Source: Acidobacteriota bacterium (GTDB lineage: Bacteria; Acidobacteriota; Thermoanaerobaculia; UBA5066). Taken from it: 64,000 nucleotides of DNA. Under the pieces are notes generated by a model. That model had not been told where the DNA came from. It saw nothing but the letters and a program-made list of their open reading frames with translations, and ran no database searches. Made by a program: the position numbers and the translations under genes. Shown here one piece after another: positions 4,865 to 50,487 of the stretch (the first letter of the stretch is position 1; each line of letters begins with the position of its first letter). The stretch is from positions 3,376 to 67,375 of the forward strand of contig JAKPXO010000228.1 of assembly GCA_029567505.1 (NCBI GenBank). Direction: 5' to 3'.

Positions 4865-5852
4865 GCCGCGCTGCCGCCGCGAGGTGGCGACCGAGGAACC
4901 AGCTGCCGGGCTCCGGGCGCCCGCCGGCGCCGCTCCGTACGAGGCCCAGCGCGCGAAGGCGGGCGATTCGCTCGGCGACACAGGTCGCGTCGCCCGCCGA
5001 AGGGGAGGCGATTCCGGCGAGAAGCTCGCGATCGGCGTCCCCGAGGAGGCCGAGATCGACGTCGCAGAGGCGTGTCACCGTCGGGTCGCGGGCCAGCCCC
5101 TCGCACGCTTCCTGGGCGTTGCCGAGCTCGATCGCGCGCTTGGCGCCGAGCTGGAGGAGGAACGGATGCCCGCCGCAACGAGTCGTCAGGAGATCGACCG
5201 CGGCTTCGGCGAGGTCGGGCCTCCGCCCCGCGGGTAGGTTCTCCTGCCTCAGGAGGCGGCGCGCCTCCTCGTCCTCCAGGGGTCCGATCCACAGCGGTGC
5301 GCCGAAGGCCGCGAGAAGGCGGTGGTCCGGTCCGCTTGTCGAAGTCCCGGCGAGGCGGACGGAGGAAGCCAGGACGACCCTCGTACCGGACTCGTTCCAC
5401 GCGCTTTCGAGCGATCCGAGCCGCTCCGGGTGGCGCCGCAGGAGGGCGAAGAGGTCCTCGGCCTCGTCACAGAGGAGAAGCAGCCGCCGGCCGTGTCGTC
5501 CGAGCTCCCCGGCGAGGCCGGCGAGCGTCGCCGACGCCGGCCCGGGCTTCGGCAGCCCGACGCCCGTCGCGGCGAGAGCGGGTTCGACGTCGATCAGCGC
5601 CTCGTGGAGGCCGAGGTCCAGCTCGTCCGGCTCGTCCGAGCCCTGGAGGTCCCAGACGACTGGCAGGAAGGGCCCCGGCCTGTCGCCGGCGAGCCGTTCG
5701 ACCTCGCGGAGGAGCGAGGTCTTGCCGACGCGGCGCATCCCGACGAGCCAGAGCCGATCCCGTGGCCCGTGGAGCGCCTCCCGGAGCAGGTCGCTCCGGC
5801 CGTAGAAGCGCTCGCCGCGCACCCACGGGCCGACGACGTACGGGACGTTCAT
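4854..5852 (-). CDS. Stand-alone AAA_16/STAND-like ATPase (third gene of the ATPase cluster)
   Basis: Start reassigned to ATG at 5852 (MNVPYVVGPWVRGERFYGRSDLLREALHGPRDRLWLVGMRRVGKTSLL = Walker A; LLLLCDEAEDL = Walker B). Its ATG overlaps the upstream gene's TGA (ATGA). Confidence 0.7.
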   Translation of the reverse strand: MNVPYVVGPWVRGERFYGRSDLLREALHGPRDRLWLVGMRRVGKTSLLREVERLAGDRPGPFLPVVWDLQGSDEPDELDLGLHEALIDVEPALAATGVGLPKPGPASATLAGLAGELGRHGRRLLLLCDEAEDLFALLRRHPERLGSLESAWNESGTRVVLASSVRLAGTSTSGPDHRLLAAFGAPLWIGPLEDEEARRLLRQENLPAGRRPDLAEAAVDLLTTRCGGHPFLLQLGAKRAIELGNAQEACEGLARDPTVTRLCDVDLGLLGDADRELLAGIASPSAGDATCVAERIARLRALGLVRSGAGGRPEPGSWFLGRHLAAAARPRS

Positions 5853-8248
5853 TCGAGGCCCTCGCCGGCGATCGCCTCCACGTCGGCGAGCGTGATCGTC
5901 CCGCGGCCCTCCTGGTGGAGCCGGCCGACGAGCGCGACGCACGCCTTCTGGATCCGGTACGGCCGGCCGGCGGTGACGTCGACCAGACGCTGGAGGGCCG
6001 CGTCGTCGATGTCGAAGACGCCGTCGATGGGGCGGCGCACGAGCGCCTCGGCGGCCCCGCGGTCGAGCGGCGCGACCTCGAGCTCCTCGAAGAAGTTGTA
6101 CCAGGGCGAGCCGGCGAGCTCCCAGTGCTTCAGGATCCCGACCCCGGAGACGACGGCCACGAGGTGCTCGGAGAAGGCGCGCATGAAGAGGCTTCGAAGC
6201 CTCTGGTTCACCTTCGGGTCGTAGGAGTTGAGCTCGTCGACCTCGTCGATGAGAAGGACGAGCTTCACGCGCTTGACCGTGCGGCGTCCCAGGGATTCGA
6301 GCACGGCTCGCAGGTCGCGGGTGAGCTCGTGGTAGCCGTAGCCGGCGACGCGGCCCGCCTCGGGGGCGACGGCGCCGGGCGGGAGGAGCGGGCCGAGCTC
6401 GTCGAGGATCGCGACCATCAGGGCACCGAAGAAGCGCTCCTCCGGGACCCCCTGGAGGTCGACGAGGACGGGGTGGAACGCGAACTCCGGGTCGTCGAGC
6501 TGCTCGAGCCGGCGCTTGAGGTGGTGGAGGAGCGAGGTCTTGCCGATGCGGCGCTCGCCGTAGAGGAGGAGGCTGTTGTTGGGAATCGTCTGCAGGACCC
6601 GGTCGATGAGCGGCTCGCGTCCGAAGAAGAGACGCTCGTCGAGGACTGGCGCGCCGGCGACGTAGGGATTGAACTTCCGTCGCCGCCGGCGTCGCCTCCG
6701 GAGCCTTCGGCCGGTGACGAAGGCACCCGCCGCGGCGAGCGGGATCGCGGCGAGGAGCGCGAGGGCCCACGGCGAGCGCGCGAAGGGCCGCTCGTAGAGG
6801 ACGACGTACTCGGCGCTTGCCGAGAGGCCCTCCGCGTCGGTGGCGACGACGCGGAGCGTCGTGCGGCCCGGGGCGAGCCGCGACGTCGACGAGAACTCCG
6901 TGAGGACGAAGTCGCCGACGTCCTGGCCCGCGGTGCCGGCGGGAGCACCGGCGTCCGTCCCGACGCCGACGTGGACGCGGACGGCCGACCGGTCGAACAC
7001 CACCCCCGAGAGGCGGAACTCCGGGGCGTCGACGATCTCCGCCCGCGTGCCGTCCGGAAGGGTCTCTCGCTGGTCCGAGAAACGGATGGCCGGAGGGAGG
7101 TTCTGACCGGTGCCCCTGCCGAGGAGCGCGCGGCTGATCTCGCCGTAGGCGCGACGGACGGCGGCGCGGGCCGGCTCGCTCGCAGCGTCGAGGGCGAGGG
7201 CACGGTTCGCGGCGGCAAGCGCCCGTTCGTGGCGCCCCGCGGCGTGCTCGGCGTCCGCTTCGGCGAGGGCGCGCGCCACGGCGTCCCGCTTCGCGTTGGA
7301 GCGGCGATCGGAGAGGAGACGCTCGAGGAGCGCCGCCGCGTCGCGGTTGCCGGGGTCGAGCGCCAGCGCCGGCTGGAGGCGATCGAGCGCCTCGGCGTTG
7401 CGCCCGGTACCGGCCAGCTCGCGGGCCGATGCGAGCGCCTCGTCGACCGCGGCGGCACGCGACCCTCGGGCGGCGTCGAGGGCCGAGAGCATTCCCTCCT
7501 CCGCACGGCGCAGGAGCCCCTCCGGGTCGGCGCCCGGCCGGAGCGAGAGGGCCTGTCTCAGGAGGCTCGCCGCCTCCGCGAAACGCCCGGCGGCCAGGGC
7601 GACACGGGCCGAGGAGACGAGACCCGCGGCGTGCTCGCTCTCCTGCCTCTCGCGCTCGCGGCGGTCGGCGTCCTTTCGGAGCCGGGCCGCCCTCGTGACG
7701 GCTCCAGCGTGCTCGGGAGAGACGGCGAGCGCGCGCGAGAGCGCGTCGAGCGCCTCCGCGGGCTTCCCCTGAGCCTCGAGCGCGTCAGCTTCGCTCAGGG
7801 CCCGCGCGACGATCGCCGCCACCCGCTCCGACTCGCCCTCCTCGGCGCCCGCGCGGGCCTCGTCCGTCAGCTGCCGGTACCGCTTGAGGAGCACGCGGGC
7901 CTCGACGGAGCGCGCGACGGCGCCGAGCCGTTCCTCGGTTTCGAACGCCTGCCGTGCGGCGTCGATCTCTCCGAGGTGGAAGTAGGCGATGCCCAGCCTG
8001 AGGTAGGGGAAGTAGTCGACGACCCGCATGCCGTACGTGCGCTCGCGGACGCCGGAATCGCCCTTCGCTTCGATCGCGCCGTTCAGCTCGGCCACGGCCG
8101 TTCGCCAGTCGCTGGCGGCGAGCGCCTTCTCGGCGCGCGCGTAGTGCTCGTACCAGCGGTCCGCGCGGGCGGGCGCGGCGAGGAGAACGAAGGCGAAGGC
8201 GACGAGGGCCGGCGCGAACGGGCGCGGGCGGGGTGCGCGCGCTCTCAC
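5849..8248 (-). CDS. Signal peptide + extracytoplasmic TPR array + single TM helix + poly-Arg tract + cytoplasmic AAA_16/STAND-like ATPase
   Basis: 799 aa. N-terminal signal peptide (AFAFVLLAAPARA). Six or more TPR-like helical repeats and an Ig-like segment. TM helix ALALLAAIPLAAAGAFVTG followed by RRLRRRRRRRRK. Then FFGREPLIDRVLQ...LLLYGERRIGKTSLL (Walker A) and LVLLIDEVDEL (Walker B). GTG start overlaps the upstream TGA (GTGA). Confidence 0.7.
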   Translation of the reverse strand: MRARAPRPRPFAPALVAFAFVLLAAPARADRWYEHYARAEKALAASDWRTAVAELNGAIEAKGDSGVRERTYGMRVVDYFPYLRLGIAYFHLGEIDAARQAFETEERLGAVARSVEARVLLKRYRQLTDEARAGAEEGESERVAAIVARALSEADALEAQGKPAEALDALSRALAVSPEHAGAVTRAARLRKDADRRERERQESEHAAGLVSSARVALAAGRFAEAASLLRQALSLRPGADPEGLLRRAEEGMLSALDAARGSRAAAVDEALASARELAGTGRNAEALDRLQPALALDPGNRDAAALLERLLSDRRSNAKRDAVARALAEADAEHAAGRHERALAAANRALALDAASEPARAAVRRAYGEISRALLGRGTGQNLPPAIRFSDQRETLPDGTRAEIVDAPEFRLSGVVFDRSAVRVHVGVGTDAGAPAGTAGQDVGDFVLTEFSSTSRLAPGRTTLRVVATDAEGLSASAEYVVLYERPFARSPWALALLAAIPLAAAGAFVTGRRLRRRRRRRRKFNPYVAGAPVLDERLFFGREPLIDRVLQTIPNNSLLLYGERRIGKTSLLHHLKRRLEQLDDPEFAFHPVLVDLQGVPEERFFGALMVAILDELGPLLPPGAVAPEAGRVAGYGYHELTRDLRAVLESLGRRTVKRVKLVLLIDEVDELNSYDPKVNQRLRSLFMRAFSEHLVAVVSGVGILKHWELAGSPWYNFFEELEVAPLDRGAAEALVRRPIDGVFDIDDAALQRLVDVTAGRPYRIQKACVALVGRLHQEGRGTITLADVEAIAGEGLE

Positions 8249-9657
8249 GACCGGGTCACCAGCCAGCGGCGGAAGAAGTGGCTCGCGATCGCGACGGAGC
8301 CGTCCGGCGCGCGACGGAGGAGGCCGAGCCGCTCGAGCTCGAGGAGCCGGCCCGTCGGGCCGGATGTCCGCGCCGCGGCCTCGTCCGCCGCGGCCAGACC
8401 GCGCAGGAGGTCACGGTCCTCCTCGTCGAGGAGCGAGAGGTCGACCGAAAAGAGGCGCCCGAGCGCCGGGTCGTCCTCGAGCTCGGCGATGGCCGCCTCC
8501 GTGTCGCCGCGCTCGAGGACGCGCGCCGCGAGCGCCTGCAGCTGGAACGGGTGGTTCCCGCAGGTCTCGCGGATCCTCTCCACCGTCCTCGCGTCGAACG
8601 CCATCCCGGCGCCGGGGCCCGGGCGGGCCGGGCCGAGCAGGTCGCGCGCCTCGGAGTCGGCGAGCGCGCCGAGGTAGACGGGCGGCGTGAAGCCGTGCAG
8701 GAAAGGCGACGTCTCGCCGTCCGGATCGGCGAGCGCCCAGAGCCGGCGCGAGGCCGCCAGAACGGTGCGGATCCCTTCGCGCGACTGGAGCGCGCGGCGG
8801 AGCTTGCGCAGGATCGCGGGCTCGCGCTCCCGCAGCCGGAGGAGCTCCTCGGCCTCGTCGACGAGGAGCAGCAGCTTGAGTCCCTGGGCGCCGAGCAGAC
8901 GGCGCAGGCGTCCGAGCGACGTGAAGAAGTCGCCGGACGGGACCTCGCCGGGCGCGATCCCCGCGGCCGAGAGGCGCGGAGAGGCGTCGAGGAGCGCTTC
9001 CGCGAGGTCCTCCTCGAGCTCGGCGGCATCCTCGACTCCCTCGAGGTCGAGAACGAGCGGCATGAAGCCGCGCTCCGGTGCGGCGGCCGTCAGGTATTCG
9101 GCCTGTCGGAGGAGCGAGGTCTTGCCCACGGCCCGGGTCCCCACGACCCAGAGCGCGTCGCGCGGGCCGTCGAGGATCTCCGCGAGCTGCGCGTCCCGCC
9201 CGAAGAAACGCTCGGCGCGGACCCACCCCCCGGCAACGAAGGGTCTCGACATGGCGGCGACCGCCGGGCGCGCGTTTGTAGCCGGGTTTCGTTCGGGCGG
9301 CACCGGTGGCGACGCCGCCTTCACCGGGGCGAGCAGGCGATAGCCTCGCTTCGAGATCGTCTCGATGTAGCGTGGCTGGCCGGCCACGTCGCCGAGAGCC
9401 CGCCGGAGCTTCGCGATCGCCCGGGTGATCGCCCACTCGGTGATGAACTCGACCTTCCAGACGCCTTCGACGAGCTGGTCGCGGGAGACGACCTGGCCGG
9501 CCCGGTCGGCCAGGAAGACGAGGACGTCCATGAGCCGCGGCTCGAGCTGCACGCTCGCGCCCGGACGCGAGATCCGATTCTGGTCGGGCTGGACGAGCCA
9601 GCCACCCAGCTCGAGGCTGCCGACCCCGACGGCGGGTCCGCGCTCGGAACTGGCCAT
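8245..9657 (-). CDS. OmpR/CadC-type winged-helix DNA-binding domain fused to an AAA_16/STAND-like ATPase
   Basis: Trans_reg_C-like segment LEPRLMDVLVFLADRAGQVVSRDQLVEGVWKVEFITEWAITRAIAKLRRALGD...YIETISKRGYRLLAPV, then FFGRDAQLAEILDGPRDALWVVGTRAVGKTSLL and LLLLVDEAEEL. Start taken as ATG at 9657 (MASSERG...). The ORF-track start at 9747 is possible. Confidence 0.7.
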   Translation of the reverse strand: MASSERGPAVGVGSLELGGWLVQPDQNRISRPGASVQLEPRLMDVLVFLADRAGQVVSRDQLVEGVWKVEFITEWAITRAIAKLRRALGDVAGQPRYIETISKRGYRLLAPVKAASPPVPPERNPATNARPAVAAMSRPFVAGGWVRAERFFGRDAQLAEILDGPRDALWVVGTRAVGKTSLLRQAEYLTAAAPERGFMPLVLDLEGVEDAAELEEDLAEALLDASPRLSAAGIAPGEVPSGDFFTSLGRLRRLLGAQGLKLLLLVDEAEELLRLREREPAILRKLRRALQSREGIRTVLAASRRLWALADPDGETSPFLHGFTPPVYLGALADSEARDLLGPARPGPGAGMAFDARTVERIRETCGNHPFQLQALAARVLERGDTEAAIAELEDDPALGRLFSVDLSLLDEEDRDLLRGLAAADEAAARTSGPTGRLLELERLGLLRRAPDGSVAIASHFFRRWLVTRS

Positions 9658-9931
9658 CGGTGCCGATTCTAGCGGTGCGGGGAGGAGGCCCTCGGAGGCG
9701 AGGCATCGGTCCCGGCCCGCCGCTCGCGCGGGAGCGAGGCGTTCCATGCGGCCACGCTAGGACACCCACGCGGGGAAAGGGTGACCGATCAGGAACCGAA
9801 CGATGACCCCCGATCACGTCCCGGCGACGGCGACGAGGACGCGGGGCGGCCAAAGGAGGCCGGGAGGCGGAAAATGCGGGCGATTCGGGTCTTCCGGCGC
9901 GGGCCGACCGCCGCATCCGGCGCCCCCCCGC

Positions 9932-39428: not shown

Positions 39429-39884
39429 ATGCCCGCAGCAGCGCCCGGCCCCATCGTCCTCTGGCTTTCGAGCCGCTACGAGAACATCGAGCTGGCTCAG
39501 GCGGCGCTCGCCCACGTCTGCCGCCTCCGGGGAATCGACGCGGAGATGGAGCACTGGATCGGAATGGCGATGCGGGAGGCGGTGGCCAACGCAGTGAAGC
39601 ACGGCAACCGGCTCGACCCCGACAAGCGCGTCCTCGTGAGGCTCGAGTCGGCGGGCGACGAGCTGACGATCGTGATCGGGGACGAGGGCGGTGGCTTCGA
39701 CCCGGAACGGGTCTCCGACCCGCTCGCCCCGGAGAACCAGCTCAAGACCTCGGGCCGCGGGATCTTCTACATCCGGACCTTCATGGACGACGTCACCTTC
39801 TCGCGGGGCGAGGGGGGCGGCACCGTCCTGACGATGCGCAAGGACCTGAGCAAGCGCGGAAACGCGAAGGGAGAGAAGCAATGA
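39429..39884 (+). CDS. Anti-sigma regulatory factor serine kinase (RsbW/SpoIIAB-like, HATPase_c)
   Basis: N-box EAVANAVKHGN, G1 box DEGGGFD, G2 GRGIF. Confidence 0.7.
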   Translation: MPAAAPGPIVLWLSSRYENIELAQAALAHVCRLRGIDAEMEHWIGMAMREAVANAVKHGNRLDPDKRVLVRLESAGDELTIVIGDEGGGFDPERVSDPLAPENQLKTSGRGIFYIRTFMDDVTFSRGEGGGTVLTMRKDLSKRGNAKGEKQ

Positions 39885-40228
39885 ACAAGAACGCCAGCAT
39901 CCGCAAGGCGGGAGAAATCACGATCATCGAGCTGAAGGGGAAGATCACGATCGGCGCCGGCGACCTCCAGATGAGGGAGGCGATCCACGCCGCTCTCGCG
40001 GAAGGGGCGCGCAAGCTCGTCGTCGACATGTCGCAGGTCGTCACGATCGACTCCTCCGGCGTCGGCGAGCTCGTCGGCTGCTTCACGACCGCCACGCACA
40101 AGGGCGCGAAGATGAAGCTGATGAACCTGCCGGCCAAGATCAGCGACGTCCTCACCGTGACGCAGCTGATCACCGTCTTCGACGTCTACCCCAACGAGGC
40201 CGAGGCGATCGCCAGCTTCAACGGCTGA
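39881..40228 (+). CDS. STAS-domain anti-sigma-factor antagonist (SpoIIAA/RsbV-like)
   Basis: 115 aa. ...LKGKIT......L......A..EGARKLVVDMSQVVTIDSSGVGELV. ATGA overlap with the kinase gene. Confidence 0.75.
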   Translation: MNKNASIRKAGEITIIELKGKITIGAGDLQMREAIHAALAEGARKLVVDMSQVVTIDSSGVGELVGCFTTATHKGAKMKLMNLPAKISDVLTVTQLITVFDVYPNEAEAIASFNG

Positions 40229-40317: not shown

Positions 40318-43300
40318 TCAGGGCTCGAGCCAGAGCTCGTTCCACCTCACCGGCGGCAGGAGGAGGTGCGCCTGGACTCCGCGCAGGCGCGGGGCGTGCG
40401 CGACGAAGCCGCGGTTGTGGAAGAGGAAGACGAGCGGGGCCTCGGACTGGACGAGCCGGTCGAGCTCGCGGTAGAGCGCCTCGCGCTCGGCCGCGTCGAG
40501 CAGACGGGCGCCCTTTTCGACGAGCCGGTCGACCTCCGGATTCGCGTAGCCGCCGTCGAGGACGCTCTCGGCCTTCGAAGAGAAGAGCGAGCGGAAGAAC
40601 GTGTCGGGGTCGGGGAAGTCGGCGAACCAGCGCGAGAGCCTCACGTCGGGGAAGACGCCGTTCCTCTTGCGGGCCGCCGCCTCCTCGCCGGGAAGCACCT
40701 CGAGCGCGAGGTTCACGCCGACCGCCTCGAGCTGGGTCGCGATCGCCGGGAGCGGATTCAGCGGGTCGCGCGCGTCCTTCGGGCTGAGCCACGCCGAGAG
40801 CGTCAGCCCGTCGCCGTGGCCCGCCTCGCGGAGGAGCGCCCTCGCGGTCTCCGGCTCGTGACGGAACGGGCGGAGCGCGGGGTCGTGCCCGACGACGTGA
40901 GGCGGGAGGATCGAGGCCGCCGGGATGGAGAGGCCCGCGAAGGTCCTCTCGTTCAGCGCCGCCCTGTCGACGGCGTAGTTGAGCGCCCGGCGGACCCGGA
41001 CGTCGTCGAGCGGCGCACGGTCGCACCGGAGGACGAGGAACGACGTGTGGAGCTGGACCGAGGAGTCGATGTAGGGCCGCCAGGCCGGGTCGCCCATCAG
41101 GCGGGCCGCCTCGGGGTACGGGATGTCCCAGACGACGTCGAGCTGGCCGTCGAGGAAGCGCTGGAAGACGCCGGCCTCCGAGTCCTCGGCCAGGGCGAGG
41201 TCGATCCCGTCGGGCGCGATCCGGTTCCGCTCCCAGTAGCCGTCGAAGCGGTCGAAGCGCGCGGACTTCCCGAACGCGATCTCCCGCGGGACGAACGCGC
41301 CGGTGCCGCACGGGAAGCGACGGATCCTCTCCGGGTCGCCCAGGATCGCGGGGGGGAGGACCGTGATGTCGGGGAGCGTCAGCAGCTGTAGGAAGAAGGG
41401 GACCGGCCGCGAGAGCCGGACGGCGAGGACCGATCCGGAAGGCGCCTCGAGCCCGGCGACGCCGGGGCTCCGTCCGGCCCGGAAGTCCTCGTATCCCTCG
41501 ACGGCGTCGAACAGGGCGGCGAGCGGCGCGCCCGTGGCCGGCGAGAGGAAGCGCTCGAAGGAGGCCTTGACGTCCGCCGCCGAGAGGGTCCCGCCCTCGT
41601 GCCACCTCACGCCGCGCCGGAGGTGGAACGTGAAGAGGGTTCCGGTCGGGTCGATCTCCCACCGCTCGGCGAGCTCGGGGACGATCCGGGTCCCCTCGCC
41701 GAACTTGACGAGCCCCTCTCCCCAGGTCCGCGCGAGGATGGCCTGGGGCACGGTCTGGCTGAAGGCGGGGTCGAAGTTCGCCTCGTCGAGGTAGCGCAGC
41801 GCGGCGCGAATCCGCCCGCCGGGCGCGGGCGAGGGAAGGCGGAACAGCGAGGAGCGGGAACGGAGCAGTAGGGATTCCTGCTCGAGCGCCTGGGCCGCCT
41901 GGTTCATCGAGGTCGCGGCGTAGGCGTTCTGCCGGGCGGCTCTGCGAATCTCGTCCATCGACCCGACCACGGCGGCGGAGCCGTCGGCGAGCGTCACGGT
42001 CGCCTCCGCGATGGCGTCGACCGTCGAGGTGACGCGCTCCATCGAGCCGAGGAGCGTCTGGCCTCCGACGGCCTGCTCCTCCATCGCCCGGGCCAGCTGC
42101 TCGGTGAGCTCTCGAACGCGATCCGCCCGCGCGTGGACGGTCCGCGTCGTCTCGAGCTGGCCGCGCGTCGCCTCGGAGATTCGACCGACCTCGGCCGAGA
42201 CGCGGCCGGTCGCCTCGGAGACGCGGGCGGCGTCGGCGCTCTGCGCCACGGCCATGCCGGCGATCCCCTCGGACGCGCGGCGGGACTCGAGCGCGAGCGC
42301 CTCGATCTCGTCGAGCGTGGCGTCGGAGGTCTGGGCGAGGTCGACGCCCTCCTCCGTGCGGCGCCGCGCGTCGGCGAGGAGCCTGCGGACGTCCTCGACG
42401 CCCCCGCGGACGGAGGAGACGAGGCCGCGGACCTCCTCGGTGGAGACGGCCGTCCGCTCGGAGAGGTCGCGGATGTCGTCGGCGAGGACGGAGAAGGTCT
42501 TGCCGCTCTCGCCTGCCTGGGCGGCGATGATCGAGGCGTTGAGGGCGAGGAGGTTCGTCTCTCCCGCGATCTCCTCGATCGCGTGGAGGATCTCCCCGAT
42601 GCGCGCGCTGTGCTCGGCGAGCGCCGTGGAGGCGTCGGAGGCGCCCGAGACGGCGGCGCGGATCTCGTGCATCCCCGCCAGAGTCCCCGAGACGGCGGTC
42701 TTCCCCGAGACGACGGCCGCCGAGACGCGCTCGGAGAGCCGCGCGCCGGTCTGGGCCTGCCGGTCGGTCTCGGCGGTGGAGGAGCGGATCGCGGCGGTGG
42801 CGCGGGCCGTTTCGTCCGCGAGGCCCGAGAGGTTCTCGACGGCGGAGGCGACCTGCTGAAGAGCGGAGACGACGCCGCCGAGCGAGGCGGTCGTCTCGTC
42901 GACGAACGCCCGGAGCGCCGTGGTGCTTCGCGAGACCTCGGTGACGGAGGCCGTCATCTCGTGGAGCGAGGCGCCGGCGTTCTCGGCGGCTCCCGCGAGC
43001 GTCTCCATCGACTCGCGCAGCGAGCCGATCGCCGCGTCGGTGCCGCGCATCGCGTCGGCCGTCTCCTCCGCGCGGGAGCTCTGCATCGCCGCGGCGAGGG
43101 AGAGCTCCCGTCCCCGCGTCGTGAGGTCCACGGCTACGCCGGAAACGGCTGCGGAGAGGCGCGTGAACGACGCCAGAATCCGCTCCATCGCGACCATCAG
43201 GCCGTGGAGCGCCTCGGCGAGCGCGTTCTCTCCCGACCGCGCGAGCGCGGCCCGCGAAAGCGTGAGGTCGCCGGCCGAGGCTCGGTGCAGCGCGTCGCGC

Positions 43301-43515
43301 GTGGCTTCCCGCGAGCGCAGGAGGCGGCCGGCCGAGAGCCGACCGAGCGCCGCGACCGCCGCGGCCGTCAGGAGGCCGGTCGTGAGGACCCGAAGGGGCG
43401 ATGGACCGCGGGTGAGAGCGAGAGCGGCGAACCCGAGCAGGACGACCGCCGGCGCCAGGAGGGCCGACAGCCATTCCCGCGCGCGGGACGAGGGCTTCGT
43501 CGACGCGGCTGGCAT
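40318..43515 (-). CDS. Methyl-accepting chemotaxis protein with a C-terminal family-5 solute-binding-protein (DppA/OppA-like) domain
   Basis: Start reassigned to ATG 43515 (MPAASTK...). Two TM helices separated by only about 7 residues, a HAMP-like linker, and the MCP signalling motif EIAGETNLLALNASIIAAQAGESGKTFSVLADDIRDLSERTA. Then, with no intervening TM segment or signal peptide, an SBP_bac_5 domain (GGRIRAALRYLDEANFDP...ILARTWGEGLVKF...RRGVRWHEGG...) of about 500 aa. Confidence 0.75.
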   Translation of the reverse strand: MPAASTKPSSRAREWLSALLAPAVVLLGFAALALTRGPSPLRVLTTGLLTAAAVAALGRLSAGRLLRSREATRDALHRASAGDLTLSRAALARSGENALAEALHGLMVAMERILASFTRLSAAVSGVAVDLTTRGRELSLAAAMQSSRAEETADAMRGTDAAIGSLRESMETLAGAAENAGASLHEMTASVTEVSRSTTALRAFVDETTASLGGVVSALQQVASAVENLSGLADETARATAAIRSSTAETDRQAQTGARLSERVSAAVVSGKTAVSGTLAGMHEIRAAVSGASDASTALAEHSARIGEILHAIEEIAGETNLLALNASIIAAQAGESGKTFSVLADDIRDLSERTAVSTEEVRGLVSSVRGGVEDVRRLLADARRRTEEGVDLAQTSDATLDEIEALALESRRASEGIAGMAVAQSADAARVSEATGRVSAEVGRISEATRGQLETTRTVHARADRVRELTEQLARAMEEQAVGGQTLLGSMERVTSTVDAIAEATVTLADGSAAVVGSMDEIRRAARQNAYAATSMNQAAQALEQESLLLRSRSSLFRLPSPAPGGRIRAALRYLDEANFDPAFSQTVPQAILARTWGEGLVKFGEGTRIVPELAERWEIDPTGTLFTFHLRRGVRWHEGGTLSAADVKASFERFLSPATGAPLAALFDAVEGYEDFRAGRSPGVAGLEAPSGSVLAVRLSRPVPFFLQLLTLPDITVLPPAILGDPERIRRFPCGTGAFVPREIAFGKSARFDRFDGYWERNRIAPDGIDLALAEDSEAGVFQRFLDGQLDVVWDIPYPEAARLMGDPAWRPYIDSSVQLHTSFLVLRCDRAPLDDVRVRRALNYAVDRAALNERTFAGLSIPAASILPPHVVGHDPALRPFRHEPETARALLREAGHGDGLTLSAWLSPKDARDPLNPLPAIATQLEAVGVNLALEVLPGEEAAARKRNGVFPDVRLSRWFADFPDPDTFFRSLFSSKAESVLDGGYANPEVDRLVEKGARLLDAAEREALYRELDRLVQSEAPLVFLFHNRGFVAHAPRLRGVQAHLLLPPVRWNELWLEP

Positions 43516-43581
43516 CGCGCCGATGCTACACTTTCCGCTCCTCCGAATCGCCCGCGCCGATCGCAGCCGGAGTCGCCCGCC

Positions 43582-44481
43582 GTGTCCATCTCCCTCCCGG
43601 AAACCCTCGCCCGCGTCCGCCGCGCGGTGGACGATCGGCTCCCCGCGCTCCTCTCCGCTCAGCCTTCGGGAGCCGGCGCCCCCGCCGTCGGAGACGCGCT
43701 CCCCACGGCGGCCCGGGAGGCGCTCCTCTCGCCCGGGAAGAGGGTCCGCCCGGGCCTCGTCTTCCTCGTCGGCGAGCTCTTCGGCGCGCCGGAGGAGCGT
43801 CTCCTCGACCCCGCCTGCGCCGTGGAGATGATCCACGCCGCGTCGCTCGCGCTGGACGACCTCCCGTCGATGGACGACGCCACGACGCGGCGGGGACGCC
43901 CGGCGCTCCACGCCGTCCACGGCGAGGACCTCGCGATCCTCGCCGCGGTCACGCTCATCGTCCGGGCGTTCGGCGTCCTCGCCGACGCCGGGCTCTCCGC
44001 GCTCCGGCCGGCCACGGCGCTCGACCTCGTCTCCCGCCTGGCCGACGCGACGGGACTCCTCGGGCTCGCCTCAGGACAGTCGCTCGACCTCCGGACGCCG
44101 GAGGCGGCGGCCTCCTTCGACCGGCTCGAGACGATTCACGCCCGGAAGACCGGGGCCCTCTTCGTGGCGTCCGCGGAGTTCGGGGCGGTCCTGGGCGGGG
44201 CCCGGGAGCGCGAGCTCGCCGCGGTCCGCTCCTACGCGCGGAACGTCGGCCTCGCGTTCCAGATCGTCGACGACCTGCTGGAGCGGCAGGACCCGGCCCG
44301 GACCGGGAAGCACGCGAATCGCGCCCCGGCACCGACCTTCGCCCGGCACGTCGGCGAGGAGGGGGCCCGGCGGCTCGTCGCGGAGCTGACGGCGCACGCC
44401 GTGGAGGCGCTCGAGCCGTTCGGCGCGAAGGGGGCGCTCCTCCGGGAGTTCGCGTCGCTCCTCGGCGCGCGGACGGCCTGA
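43582..44481 (+). CDS. Second IspA-like trans-prenyl diphosphate synthase (possible GGPP synthase)
   Basis: GTG start. FARM LALDDLPSMDDATTRRG, SARM FQIVDDLLE. Confidence 0.75.
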   Translation: MSISLPETLARVRRAVDDRLPALLSAQPSGAGAPAVGDALPTAAREALLSPGKRVRPGLVFLVGELFGAPEERLLDPACAVEMIHAASLALDDLPSMDDATTRRGRPALHAVHGEDLAILAAVTLIVRAFGVLADAGLSALRPATALDLVSRLADATGLLGLASGQSLDLRTPEAAASFDRLETIHARKTGALFVASAEFGAVLGGARERELAAVRSYARNVGLAFQIVDDLLERQDPARTGKHANRAPAPTFARHVGEEGARRLVAELTAHAVEALEPFGAKGALLREFASLLGARTA

Positions 44482-46381: not shown

Positions 46382-47962
46382 GTGACGCGCTGGCCCGTTC
46401 GTCTCGTCGCCGCGGTCCTTCTGGCGGCGCTGCTGCCGCCGGCCGTCCTCGTCTGGCTCTCCTTCCGCCTCGAGCGGCGGGCCCTGCGCGACGACCTCGA
46501 GCGCCGCGCCCGGTCGGCCGCCGCGCTCACCGACGCCCTCCTCTCGAGCACGGAGGGCCTCCTTTCACGGCTCGGAACGGACTGGGACGGAGGCTGCGGG
46601 GCCGAGACCGCGGAATCGCTCCGTTCCGCGCTCGAGGTCGGAGCCGGCGTCCGAGGCGTCGCGCTGCTCGACGCGGAGCTCCGCCCCGTCTGCGTGGCCG
46701 GGACGGCGCCGGTGCCCCCGTCGCCGTCCGTCCGGGGAGCGCTCGGCCGCGACGCGCGTGCCGTCTGGGAGGCCGGGGCGCCGGGCGGCCTCATCCGCCT
46801 CGCGCTGCGGCTCCCGGAGGGTTCGGCCGAGGCGGCCCTCGACGCCGGGCCGATCGCGCGCGCTCTCACGGAGCTCGCGGGGGGCGGCCGGGACGCCGTC
46901 GAAGTCCGGGGCGTCGCCGGTCCCGTCCTCTCCATCCCCGCGGCTCCCGCCTCACGGCGCCTCGCTTCGCCGTTCCTCCTCCTCCTCGGTTCGCTCGTCG
47001 GCGCGCGGGACGAGACCGCTGTCGCCCCCTGCGCCGGCGGGGGCGTCTCCGTCCACCTGTACGCCCGCCGGGAGGCGCAGCTCGCCGCGTGGGGAGAGAC
47101 CCTCCCGCTTCTCGTCGCGATCGGCCTCGGCTTCGGCGCCGGCGCCGCCGCGCTCGTCCTCCTCGCGGGATCGCCCGGCGCGGCGCTCACGCGCCAGCTG
47201 CGCGGAGCGCTCCGGCGCGGCGAGCTGGAGGTGAGGTACCTGCCGATCGTGGACGTGTCGTCCGGTCGCTGTGTCGGCGCCGAGGCCCTCCTCCGGTGGC
47301 GTCACGCGCGGGAGGGGCTCCTTTCGCCCGACCTCTTCATCGCGCTCGCCGAGGAGACGGAGCTGATCGTCCCGATCACGGAGTGGCTCATGCGACGGGT
47401 CGCGCGGGACCTTCCCGGCGGTCTCCGCGAGCCCGACCGCTTCTACGTGGCGATCAACCTCGCCGGGGCGCACCTGCGCGATCCCGGGACCGTGGCGGCC
47501 GTCCTGCGCGCGTTCGCGGGCTCGCGGCTCGGGCCGAAGGGCCTCGTCTTCGAGGTGACGGAGCGGGAGGTGATCGACGACGTGGACGGGACGGCCCGAA
47601 ACGTCCTCGAGGCGCTCCAGGGGTGGGGCGCCACGATCGCTCTCGACGACTTCGGCACCGGCTACTCGAACATCGCCACGCTGCGGCGCTTCCGTCTCGA
47701 CCACCTGAAGATCGACAAGAGCTTCGTCGAGGGGATCGGCACCGGCTCGGTCGCCGAGACGGTCGTCGACACTCTCGTCGAGCTGGGACGGAAGCTCGAG
47801 ATGACGGTCGTGGCGGAGGGTGTCGAGCGGGAGGAGCAGGTGGAGTACCTCGTCGAACGAGGCGTCCGCCACTTCCAGGGGTACCTCTTCTCGAAGCCCC
47901 TCCCCCTGAAGGAGCTCGTCGCGTTCGTGAACGAACGGGCGGGCGGCCCGGTCGTCAGCTGA
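46382..47962 (+). CDS. Membrane-anchored c-di-GMP phosphodiesterase: periplasmic Cys-containing sensor domain plus EAL domain
   Basis: N-terminal TM, periplasmic segment with conserved cysteines (DGGCGAE...PVCVAG), second TM, EAL domain (GAEALLRW, DDFGTGYS, KIDKSF). Confidence 0.75.
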   Translation: MTRWPVRLVAAVLLAALLPPAVLVWLSFRLERRALRDDLERRARSAAALTDALLSSTEGLLSRLGTDWDGGCGAETAESLRSALEVGAGVRGVALLDAELRPVCVAGTAPVPPSPSVRGALGRDARAVWEAGAPGGLIRLALRLPEGSAEAALDAGPIARALTELAGGGRDAVEVRGVAGPVLSIPAAPASRRLASPFLLLLGSLVGARDETAVAPCAGGGVSVHLYARREAQLAAWGETLPLLVAIGLGFGAGAAALVLLAGSPGAALTRQLRGALRRGELEVRYLPIVDVSSGRCVGAEALLRWRHAREGLLSPDLFIALAEETELIVPITEWLMRRVARDLPGGLREPDRFYVAINLAGAHLRDPGTVAAVLRAFAGSRLGPKGLVFEVTEREVIDDVDGTARNVLEALQGWGATIALDDFGTGYSNIATLRRFRLDHLKIDKSFVEGIGTGSVAETVVDTLVELGRKLEMTVVAEGVEREEQVEYLVERGVRHFQGYLFSKPLPLKELVAFVNERAGGPVVS

Positions 47963-49662: not shown

Positions 49663-50487
49663 TCAGGTGAAGCCCTGGAGCCTCTTCAGCGCGGCGACTT
49701 TGAGAGCCATGCTCGTCGCGGCGCCGCGCGAGATGTTCCTCACCTCCGACTCGGGGAGCGTCGGGAGGATCCGGAGGGCGAACGCGGGGGGCGTCTTCGC
49801 GTTGTGGACGAGCGCGACGCGCACCTCGAGGTTCGAGAACCACTGGGTCGACTTCATCATCGCCTCGGCGGTCTGGAACGTCAGGAACGGCGACTTCGCG
49901 ATCCGGATCACCTCGTCTGCGGTGAGGCGCGGGTTCTTCAGGAGGGAGTAGAGGACCTGCGGGTCGCTGTCCTGGGCGAGGATCATCCGCTCGACGCGGT
50001 CCGCCTTCGCCGCGAGGAGGAGCTTCTCGACGCGCGTCAGGCCGCGAAGGCGGTCCCAGACGCTCTCGCGGACGGCGGTCTCCTCCGCCTCCGCGACGTC
50101 CTCGAGGACCTCCTCTCCGGGCTCTTCGGGAGCGTCGCGGAGCGCTTCGGCGAGGGCGGTGGCGTCTCCGTCCACGTGAAGGGCGTAGCCGTCGGGGAGG
50201 GGGGCGACGACGGTCGCCGTGGCGGGGACCTCGCCGCCTCCCGCGAGCCGGAGGACGAGGGTGAGCTTCGAGAAGATCGCGAGCCTCTCCCGCGTCGGGA
50301 GCCTCAGGCCGCCCGCGGAGAGGTTCGTCCGCGCCTCGGCCTCGAGCTCGGCCTCGGCCTCGAACTCGACCGTGAACGCCGCGGGGCCGGTCCTCTCGGT
50401 TCTCACGCGCCTTCTCTCCCCGGAGAGTGTAGGCCGGCCGGCGGTCGCAGCGGCCTCAGCGGATCCCGCGGAAGGAGACGGCGACAT
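49663..50487 (-). CDS. PilZ-domain protein with a C-terminal helical-repeat region
   Basis: RRRVRTER...NLSAGGLRL matches the PilZ RxxxR / D/NxSxxG c-di-GMP-binding motifs. The start may be internal, because the listed start overlaps the upstream gene by 32 nt. Confidence 0.5.
   Translation of the reverse strand: MSPSPSAGSAEAAATAGRPTLSGERRRVRTERTGPAAFTVEFEAEAELEAEARTNLSAGGLRLPTRERLAIFSKLTLVLRLAGGGEVPATATVVAPLPDGYALHVDGDATALAEALRDAPEEPGEEVLEDVAEAEETAVRESVWDRLRGLTRVEKLLLAAKADRVERMILAQDSDPQVLYSLLKNPRLTADEVIRIAKSPFLTFQTAEAMMKSTQWFSNLEVRVALVHNAKTPPAFALRILPTLPESEVRNISRGAATSMALKVAALKRLQGFT

Follow-up and report, generated by a model that had tools for sequence, protein, structure and literature searches.

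Can a complete solute-binding protein (SBP) of family 5 be used inside the cell, at the C-terminal end of a chemoreceptor, and what would it do there? The question is raised by a single gene in a 64,000-nucleotide stretch of DNA from an Acidobacteriota bacterium (GTDB lineage Bacteria; Acidobacteriota; Thermoanaerobaculia; UBA5066; NCBI GenBank assembly GCA_029567505.1, contig JAKPXO010000228.1, positions 3,376 to 67,375 of the forward strand), referred to below as the window. The gene encodes the signalling domain of a methyl-accepting chemotaxis protein (MCP) that runs on into a family-5 SBP domain, an arrangement that an original prediction, made from the sequence alone, had called the reverse of every known MCP architecture. 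Our results leave very little doubt that the product is a real cytoplasmic fusion protein. We further consider it probable that it is a membrane-tethered MCP in which the cytoplasmic SBP domain is the sensory input controlling the MCP output. By its sequence, the window protein is a member of the McpK-type MCP-SBP5 family, which is already catalogued and uncharacterised.

The open reading frame extends on the minus strand from an ATG at 43515 to a stop codon at 40318-40320. The gene and the parts of its product are as follows.

40318..43515, minus strand: coding sequence of the MCP-SBP5 fusion, 1065 amino acids plus stop, recognised by its open reading frame and translation, by the Pfam domains MCPsignal and SBP_bac_5, and by full-length homologues of 1033-1078 amino acids
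43414..43476, minus strand: first transmembrane segment (TM1), residues ~14-34, with a Kyte-Doolittle peak of 2.41 at 16-34 and a helix at 10-33 in the AlphaFold2 (AF2) model
43330..43398, minus strand: second transmembrane segment (TM2), residues ~40-62, within an AF2 helix at 40-80; the hydrophobic stretch 41-61 is conserved in most homologues
43162..43329, minus strand: HAMP-homologous segment, residues 63-118, recognised by alignment to the HAMP domain of the receptor P0098, invariant columns and AF2 secondary structure
41836..43161, minus strand: MCP signalling hairpin, residues 119-560, with the Pfam MCPsignal match and no indel over residues 98-573 in 75 sequences
42403..42615, minus strand: tip region of the hairpin, residues 301-371, signature ETNLLALNASIIAAQAGESGKTF, the most conserved segment
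41821..41835, minus strand: five-residue Pro-rich linker P561-S-P-A-P565, defined by column counts in 75 sequences
40321..41820, minus strand: complete family-5 (cluster C) SBP domain, residues 566-1065, predicted to be cytoplasmic, recognised by Pfam, sequence matches to the PDB, AF2 and Foldseek
40603..40629, minus strand: W963-F-A-D966-F-P-D969-P-D971 motif, located by HMMER alignment to 1dpp_A

The frame upstream of ATG 43515 is still open, as far as a GTG at 43920. Since close homologues share the N-terminus MPAAS... with the window protein, and since an extension would overlap the divergent polyprenyl synthase gene at 43582-44481, ATG 43515 is the likely start. Both domains are recognised by Pfam well above the respective cutoffs, MCPsignal (PF00015) at residues 269-440 with 104.5 bits (cutoff 34.6) and SBP_bac_5 (PF00496) at residues 611-982 with 227.3 bits (cutoff 32.4; 4e-67). 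The GC content at third codon positions (GC3) is 0.935 in the MCP part, 0.92 at the junction and 0.962 in the SBP part, i.e. uniform, and the frame is continuous.

The fusion is far from being restricted to the window. A search of 5.8 billion proteins returned ~88 clusters related to the window protein, with the same two Pfam domains, 28-97% identity and a length that is steady at ~1064 amino acids; their source names are Thermoanaerobaculia, Acidobacteria or Myxococcaceae. A second search, started from the myxobacterial-type member P0085, added more than 120 clusters of 1033-1061 amino acids from Myxococcia, including cultured Myxococcus, Corallococcus, Pyxidicoccus, Stigmatella, Hyalangium, Archangium, Cystobacter and Vitiosangium, and the fusion is present in finished chromosomes, e.g. 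of Myxococcus, Stigmatella and Archangium. As the fusion recurs in both sets of clusters, finished genomes included, a local sequencing or assembly error is excluded. A profile search of 1.84 billion representatives gave ~30-35 full-length representatives at 50% clustering, and a search of genome contigs with a profile of the full-length alignment found no fusion among the matches listed, which had generic MCP tips. Four candidate fusion loci were rejected: L011 contains tandem SBPs, L026 an unrelated MCP and L040 tandem MCPs, and L020, selected by open reading frame length, has a frame that passes through masked N's.

Stand-alone receptors with the same tip signature, taken from Nitrospiria, Desulfuromonas, Geobacter, Myxococcota and Thermoanaerobaculia, end in ...F-[KR]-[VLIMA]-stop, 222-225 residues past the tip Glu, and the SBP domain begins 6 residues beyond the end point of the stand-alone receptors of the same length class. 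The alignment of the stand-alone receptor P0098 with residues 6-560 of the window protein starts at TM2 and reaches the final residue of P0098; the terminal SIFKM of P0098 pairs with SLFRL, after which the window protein continues with P-S-P-A-P and G566-G567-R-I-R, a typical start of a mature family-5 SBP. In effect, a whole chemoreceptor has taken the place of the signal peptide of the SBP.

An alignment of 75 family members underlies all statements on invariance and indels. At the junction, F558 is found in 75/75, L560 in 61/75, P561 in 66/75, P563 in 54/75, G566 in 74/75 and G567 in 75/75 sequences. Over residues 558-567, identity is still 60% with members that share only 28-33% overall, while the flanks are 27-35% identical, making the junction the second most conserved segment behind the tip. 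The predicted local distance difference test score (pLDDT) of the AF2 model is 86-90 at this position. No indel at all is found between residues 98 and 573, that is, from the second HAMP helix (AS2) through both arms and the junction to the first SBP strand. Length and junction are under strict constraint, and the coupling of SBP and receptor is under selection.

The signalling hairpin is unusually long. It consists of an N-terminal arm (119-335), the tip Glu336 and a C-terminal arm (337-560) ending in F558-R-L560, and its antiparallel, symmetric arms measure ~218 and ~222 residues. The hairpin shape of the signalling domain brings its C-terminal bundle helix back to the membrane-proximal end, so that this helix terminates beside the HAMP segment. 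The tip region, where CheA and CheW presumably make contact, is conserved more strongly than any other part of the protein, being 57-84% identical to all family groups, with T320, L322, L323, L325, N326, A331, Q333, G335 and F341 invariant. In all five proteins measured (the window protein, M. xanthus P0208, P0098, P0107 and P0111), the C-terminal Phe follows the tip Glu at a distance of exactly 222 residues. Arms of 222 residues imply ~63-64 heptads, and the stand-alone relatives are equally long. A long receptor class, '40+24H', with which this length is in keeping, has been reported for Geobacteraceae (PMC3543383), and the stand-alone long-class MCPs probably correspond to it, as judged by arm length rather than by class hidden Markov models (HMMs). 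The motif A-M-x-E480-Q481-x-x-G-S is conserved and resembles the methylation consensus; other candidate EE pairs of the relatives are not kept in the window protein, and no cheR or cheB is visible in the 64-kb window.

Two low-confidence stretches in the AF2 model (ma90ede09cc92), 200-221 and 449-468, lie nearly symmetrically about the tip, at 115-136 and 113-132 residues from E336. In the modelled hairpin they would face each other, and they may represent a hinge, the boundary of a '40H' core with a '24H' extension, or a fold-back artefact that arises when a monomer is modelled.

At the N-terminus, the window protein has only two hydrophobic segments, 14-34 and 40-62, of which the second has a Kyte-Doolittle value of ~1.5 as compared to 1.7-2.5 in homologues. 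In the AF2 model they are joined by a loop of 6 residues, 34-39 (TRGPSP), which would be the sole periplasmic part of the protein, and positive charges flank the cytoplasmic sides of the hairpin anchor. The following HAMP-homologous segment comprises helix AS1 to ~80, the connector A-G82-D83-L84-T with G82 and L84 invariant, and AS2 from ~97. A helix-connector-helix is seen in the AF2 model over this segment, and residues ~60-118 align with the Pfam-positive HAMP domain (223-274) of P0098. According to hydropathy, no segment with transmembrane character exists from residue 62 to the C-terminus, nor between the MCP module and the SBP domain; borderline peaks of 1.6-1.9 near residue 700 in some homologues are due to the buried PLAFFLxLL strand of the SBP core. 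Both TM1 and TM2 are missing in six members (P0074-78 and P0080), which without any transmembrane segment must be soluble, so that their SBP domain works in the cytoplasm. Since hydrophobic segments are lacking beyond residue 62 of the window protein, since these six members exist, and since the MCP module must be cytoplasmic to function, we place the SBP domain in the cytoplasm.

The SBP domain is complete. The AF2 model has a pLDDT of ~90 over the domain, and Foldseek aligned ~500-520 columns to solved family-5 SBPs, with TM-scores normalised to the target (TMt) of 0.72-0.90. The best values were obtained with unliganded open forms (5u4o 0.90, 1uqw 0.87, 4oet 0.86, 8azb 0.86, 4toz 0.83) as compared to 0.72-0.78 with liganded DppA and OppA structures, indicating that the model represents an open flytrap. 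The nearest solved structures by sequence are a peptide-binding protein from Mesorhizobium (8upi, 5.6e-61), DppA (1e-44) and GbpA/HbpA, followed by OppA and MppA, while NikA is a much weaker match (~1e-22, as compared to 1e-44 to 1e-61 for the peptide binders). Sub-threshold NCBIfam matches comprise the DppA, Opp4A, GsiB, NikA and OppA models at ~1e-32 to 1e-35, and a weak match to SgrR was found at residues 594-665 (E 0.0025).

The domain thus shares its whole fold with the periplasmic proteins DppA (1dpp), OppA, MppA, GbpA/HbpA and 8upi, at 22-27% identity, and it also shares their W-x-x-D motif with the Asp that binds the ammonium group. In the HMMER alignment to 1dpp_A, D966 corresponds to Asp408 of E. 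coli DppA, the residue that binds the alpha-ammonium group of the ligand; W963, D966 and D969 are invariant. In M. xanthus McpK, the motif reads WLAD(945)YPDPD. The PDB entry 8z1z is a DppA mutant, R383D+D436R in precursor numbering, in which Asp436 is Asp408. Because the best matches bind peptides, glutathione or murein peptide, and because the equivalent of Asp408 is invariant, we lean, tentatively, towards a peptide-like ligand with a free amino group. Nickel and oligosaccharides, which had been proposed along with peptides, are less likely judging from the weaker NikA-type matches, and nothing supports the suggested decoy role.

In contrast to the periplasmic family-5 SBPs, the window SBP has no signal peptide or lipobox, has no ABC permease or ATPase genes nearby and is covalently joined to an MCP. 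E. coli DppA signals to the MCP Tap as well, but does so from the periplasm and as a separate protein (PMC8050422), whereas the window SBP is a fused cytoplasmic domain. For such a cytoplasmic domain without linked genes for an ABC permease or ATPase, the label 'ABC transporter substrate-binding protein' used in RefSeq is misleading. RefSeq/PGAP applies this name to the myxobacterial members despite the MCP fusion and the lack of a transporter linkage.

What the original prediction had observed in the sequence is confirmed, and its interpretation is borne out in part. The proposed hairpin anchor without a periplasmic sensor agrees with the two hydrophobic helices and the 6-residue loop, and the HAMP-like linker is homologous to the Pfam-positive HAMP domain of a stand-alone relative. 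The signalling domain is a bona fide MCP module by its Pfam score and conserved tip, and the SBP_bac_5 assignment, for which a domain scan had been recommended, is supported by a Pfam match well above cutoff and by a complete fold in Foldseek. The domain indeed opens at G566-G567-R-I-R-A-A-L, as had been read, and its intracellular location C-terminal to the signalling module is in agreement with the absence of a signal peptide or transmembrane segment in between. A frameshift that would split off a separate SBP gene is refuted by the continuous frame, the uniform GC3 and the occurrence of the fusion in many genomes, and the recommended search for the same fusion elsewhere found it in more than 200 protein clusters.

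The claim that did not hold is that of a unique architecture. Moine et al. (2014; PMC3945109) tabulate McpK (MXAN_6456, ABF92748) of M. xanthus as an orphan MCP with the same domain order, and many RefSeq genomes carry it as well. Over residues 101-1065 (965 residues), the window protein and the M. xanthus protein P0208 (1048 amino acids) are collinear, with 31% identity (E 1e-102), and from the species and the length of 1048 amino acids, rather than from the accession, we infer that P0208 is McpK. It has an N-terminal hydrophobic hairpin, no Pfam HAMP, MCPsignal and SBP_bac_5 in the same order as the window protein (1048 vs 1065 amino acids), and the tip-to-Phe distance of 222 residues and the F-x-L-P-x-P-x-x-G-G junction are identical. 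The two proteins come from different phyla, the window protein being from Thermoanaerobaculia in the Acidobacteriota, and their gene neighbours differ: a polyprenyl synthase gene lies by the window gene, whereas AstA and Dicty_CTDC genes are found in Myxococcus. Moine et al. place McpK in heptad class 44H and conclude from it that McpK acts together with DifA in signalling to the Dif system (PMC3945109). This class disagrees with the measured arm of ~222 residues, and the heptad class used to tie McpK to the Dif pathway is probably in error, a judgement that is based on length and not on class HMMs. The architecture itself is hence not new to databases or the literature, and its existence would not surprise a specialist.

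How does the fusion compare with other receptors? The stand-alone long-class MCPs with the tip IIAAQAGEHGKGF (P0098, P0099 and proteins from Geobacter, Desulfuromonas and Nitrospiria) align with the window protein end to end in HAMP, arms, tip signature and F-[KR]-φ, and have the same tip-to-Phe distance of 222 residues. However, they have periplasmic sensor regions and stop at F-[KR]-φ, whereas the window protein has no periplasmic domain and runs on into the SBP. Two further proteins of the same long class with the IIAAQAGEHGKGF tip, P0107 (958 amino acids) and P0111 (951 amino acids), carry a PhnD-type domain ('Phosphonate-bd', PF12974) straight after the natural F-x-φ end; an N-terminal periplasmic region is also present in both. 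This PhnD-type fusion looks like an independent invention of the same design. In addition, P0296 (829 amino acids) is a soluble shorter-class MCP (MCPsignal 114-280, no transmembrane segment, tip IEAARAGE) with a complete SBP_bac_5 domain (372-742) at its end; the combination of MCP and family-5 SBP is thus not confined to the long class.

Family-5 SBP domains also occur on another kind of signalling protein. P0264, P0265, P0270 and about 80 similar entries, of 1.5-1.95 thousand amino acids, combine an N-terminal Ser/Thr kinase (Pkinase), an AAA_16 STAND ATPase with a helical arm and two complete SBP_bac_5 domains in tandem. They have no transmembrane segment and keep the W-x-A-D-[FY]-x-D-x-D motif, and from the lack of a transmembrane segment it follows that their family-5 SBP domains are cytoplasmic. 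In pairwise comparison, their SBP domains are 30% and 26% identical to that of the window protein. We rejected them as its closest relatives, as these values are barely above the 27% of the periplasmic 8upi and their rank is inflated by the presence of two domains. No functional study was found in the literature on SBP_bac_5-Pkinase proteins.

In transcription factors of the SgrR type, the sensor is a cytoplasmic SBP_bac_5-like domain joined to a DNA-binding domain, and TlpD-type receptors carry a CZB zinc-binding domain. SgrR is a precedent for a family-5 SBP fold that acts as a sensor inside the cell, and the SBP is C-terminal in both proteins, in SgrR behind the helix-turn-helix domain. The outputs differ, however, being DNA binding in SgrR and kinase control in the window protein, and no close sequence relationship is shown. 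Among chemoreceptors, the C-terminal PilZ domain of Azospirillum brasilense Tlp1/Aer binds cyclic di-GMP (c-di-GMP), and the C-terminal hemerythrin domain of Desulfovibrio vulgaris DcrH binds O2, the mechanism of transmission being described as unresolved (PMC13401364). C-terminal sensor domains were thus already established for MCPs, which likewise speaks against uniqueness (PMC13401364). As in the window protein, a cytoplasmic ligand-binding domain follows the signalling hairpin in Tlp1/Aer and DcrH, and the signal is fed into the C-terminal helix close to where the bundle meets the membrane. Their C-terminal domains are small (~100-150 amino acids) and of unrelated fold, whereas the window protein carries a bilobed Venus flytrap of 500 amino acids, from a family that otherwise serves extracytoplasmic transport.

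The N-terminal hairpin only anchors the protein, and if the SBP domain is the sensory input, as we consider probable, the signal would come from the cell interior. The SBP domain would bind a cytoplasmic small molecule, the best candidates being peptides or other compounds with a free alpha-amino group, e.g. di- and tripeptides, molecules resembling glutathione or a murein peptide, and derivatives of amino acids. Binding would close the flytrap, and lobe closure would act, via the short, rigid and conserved junction, on the terminus of the bundle's C-terminal helix beside HAMP. Motion of the lobes relative to the bundle, HAMP or the partner subunit could then shift helix packing at the membrane-proximal end, so that the usual place of signal entry of HAMP would be used with input via the other helix. 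The change in packing would travel to the distal tip and alter the activity of CheA bound there with CheW. The receptor would probably be part of arrays with stand-alone receptors of the same length class and would report the nutritional or metabolic state to the chemosensory pathway.

Several observations weigh against such a sensory role or limit how far it can be specified. The tip has I329 and Q333 at the positions where E. coli Tsr has E385 and R388, and array contacts may therefore differ from the paradigm. Pfam HAMP (PF00672) has no match in the window protein at E<=0.1. The AF2 model is that of a monomer, contains the two low-confidence stretches and shows no DSSP break at the tip, so that neither the bundle geometry nor the interface between SBP and bundle is established by it. 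Arg355 of DppA, which binds the ligand carboxylate, is not conserved, being Asp in the window protein and variable across the family, and a canonical dipeptide is therefore not implied. No che genes are present among the open reading frames scanned in the 64-kb window, and in nine of nine homologous contexts the gene is an orphan without che genes or informative conserved neighbours; pathway and output are accordingly not assigned by context. No functional study was found in the literature on SBP_bac_5 chemoreceptors and MXAN_6456, and no ligand, binding assay or phenotype was found there for any member of the family; in Moine et al., McpK is a table entry only.

An alternative that we regard as unlikely is that the SBP domain is a protein-interaction or scaffold module, which would clamp the flexible terminus or a peptide of a partner, or mediate receptor-receptor contacts in the membrane-proximal layer, and thereby localise or bias the receptor. 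Family-5 SBPs are generally known to hold extended peptides by backbone contacts, and a protein tail could fit such a cleft; moreover, no transporter or metabolic gene is consistently linked to the receptor gene, and the tandem SBP domains of the STAND kinases could be interaction modules as well. However, the invariant Asp, equivalent to the alpha-ammonium binder of DppA, argues for a ligand with a free amino group in the cleft, and the predicted open two-lobe form resembles apo transport SBPs. Furthermore, an independent PhnD-type domain, from a family of small-anion binders, is found at the same site, which is explained more simply by the sensing of small ligands.

It is decidedly unlikely that the MCP module has lost signalling and that the protein is a tethered or cytoplasmic binding or buffering protein, a decoy or bait, with the coiled coil as a spacer or oligomerisation rod. 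The orphan gene without che neighbours, the name 'ABC transporter substrate-binding protein' given to homologues by NCBI pipelines and the two departures of the tip from the enteric consensus would fit this view. Against it stand the tip, which surpasses the rest of the protein in conservation (57-84% identical, with many invariant residues), and an arm of exactly 222 residues that is free of indels across phyla and matches stand-alone receptors co-transcribed with cheW. Such constraint is unexpected for a mere spacer.

Even less can be said for an inverted or otherwise unconventional topology, in which the SBP domain would be extracytoplasmic and sense an external solute like a classical tethered SBP, and we consider it highly improbable. 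SBP_bac_5 proteins are otherwise almost always extracytoplasmic (reviewed in PMC8050422 and PMC10443332), and three predicted transmembrane segments are listed for McpK by Moine et al. (PMC3945109). However, the MCP module leads into the SBP domain without a hydrophobic segment and through a linker of only 5 residues, it must touch cytoplasmic CheA and CheW, positive charges lie beside the cytoplasmic sides of the hairpin anchor, and six members have no transmembrane segment at all. Finally, an assembly or sequencing artefact, in which a frameshift or lost stop would have joined an MCP gene to a separate SBP gene, can be dismissed, as we found no point in its favour, the frame is unbroken with GC3 of 0.92-0.96 through the junction, the F-x-L-P-x-P-x-x-G-G motif is kept in 75 independent sequences, the SBP part lacks a signal peptide of its own and the finished genomes of M. 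xanthus, Stigmatella and Archangium carry the fusion.

The window is an ordinary chromosomal region containing thrS, infC, pheST, the genes for RNase Y, dxs, xseA, and those for NAD kinase and TamB. The features closest to the receptor gene, and other regulatory genes of the window, are the following.

43516..43581, no strand: divergent intergenic region of 66 bp, shared with the polyprenyl synthase gene; part of a conserved pair
43582-44481, plus strand: polyprenyl synthase gene, 299 amino acids, divergent, 66 bp from the start of the MCP-SBP gene
39429-39884, plus strand: gene for an RsbW-like anti-sigma-factor kinase (HATPase_c_2), overlapping the RsbV-like gene
39881-40228, plus strand: gene for an RsbV-like anti-anti-sigma protein (STAS); it converges on the MCP-SBP gene, with a gap of 89 bp
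46382-47962, plus strand: gene for an EAL-domain protein, 526 amino acids, first ~270 residues unassigned, within 10 kb
49663-50487, minus strand: gene for a PilZ-like protein, 274 amino acids, a weak match just under the Pfam cutoff, within 10 kb
8248-9756, minus strand: gene for a STAND-type regulator with Trans_reg_C (OmpR-type winged helix) and nSTAND1/AAA_16
5852-8410, minus strand: gene for a STAND-type regulator with TPR repeats and AAA_16, adjacent to the gene at 8248-9756

The 66-bp intergenic region presumably holds both promoters; a promoter and terminator consensus scan was empty, and no sigma-70-type consensus was found in these 66 bp. The head-to-head pair with the polyprenyl synthase gene is kept, with gaps of 24-67 bp, by homologues that are 85% and 35% identical (L001, L002, L007). 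Its conservation is limited to Thermoanaerobaculia, and Myxococcia lack the divergent polyprenyl synthase gene. The RsbW/RsbV-like pair also adjoins the gene of the 85%-identical homologue (L001), and the EAL and PilZ-like proteins are c-di-GMP signalling components encoded near the receptor gene.

No Opp- or Dpp-type permease or ATPase genes lie beside the gene, either in the window or in the nine homologous contexts. Other neighbours comprise an EamA gene, which follows in two contexts, and a divergent RelA/SpoT gene in one, neither of which is found in M. xanthus or Stigmatella. A link to peptides through the M24 peptidase gene downstream of P0085 and the M20 peptidase gene near P0076 was rejected, as these genes are not conserved in M. 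xanthus and Stigmatella. Since the neighbours are not conserved into these two organisms, we draw no functional inference from gene context. P0099 (L090) and P0104 (L091) are stand-alone MCPs of the same length class in Thermoanaerobaculia, and the gene of each is followed directly by cheW, showing that array partners of matching length and chemosensory components exist in this class. In L091, ~3.5 kb separate the P0104-cheW pair from pilB, pilT, pilC and the gene for a PilS-type kinase, which lie downstream of it; this hints at a pilus-related chemosensory pathway in Thermoanaerobaculia.

Reviews treat SBPs as extracytosolic (PMC8050422, PMC10443332), and no discussion of fused cytoplasmic SBPs was found in the literature. 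The significance of the window protein and its family lies in the use of a complete family-5 SBP inside the cell, in a fixed register at the end of a chemoreceptor bundle, in contrast to this view, and in a distribution that spans from Acidobacteriota to M. xanthus, a model organism with genetics. Our analysis also flags a systematic misannotation of these receptors as 'ABC transporter substrate-binding protein'. Testable handles are available in the exact position of the fusion, in the junction and the ligand-binding Asp, both of which are invariant, and in the variants that are soluble by nature. These handles bear on signal entry at the C-terminal end of MCPs, as for DcrH, and on what the orphan McpK senses. 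With the end-on fusion, the invariant junction, the soluble variants, the PhnD-type parallels and a tractable orthologue, C-terminal signal entry becomes directly testable.

The occurrence of such domains on different signalling proteins suggests that intracellular sensors with the fold of periplasmic binding proteins (PBPs) form a broader, little-discussed class. It is conceivable, although we would not yet call it probable, that PBP folds, namely the family-5 SBP and independently the PhnD-type domain, have repeatedly been recruited as intracellular Venus-flytrap sensors on the C-termini of long-class MCPs and, in tandem, on STAND Ser/Thr kinases. If this is true, transmission would start at the end of the C-terminal helix and differ from the TM2-HAMP route, and there would be a largely unrecognised input route from the intracellular peptide or metabolite pool to chemosensory and kinase signalling in bacteria such as Myxococcus and Thermoanaerobaculia.

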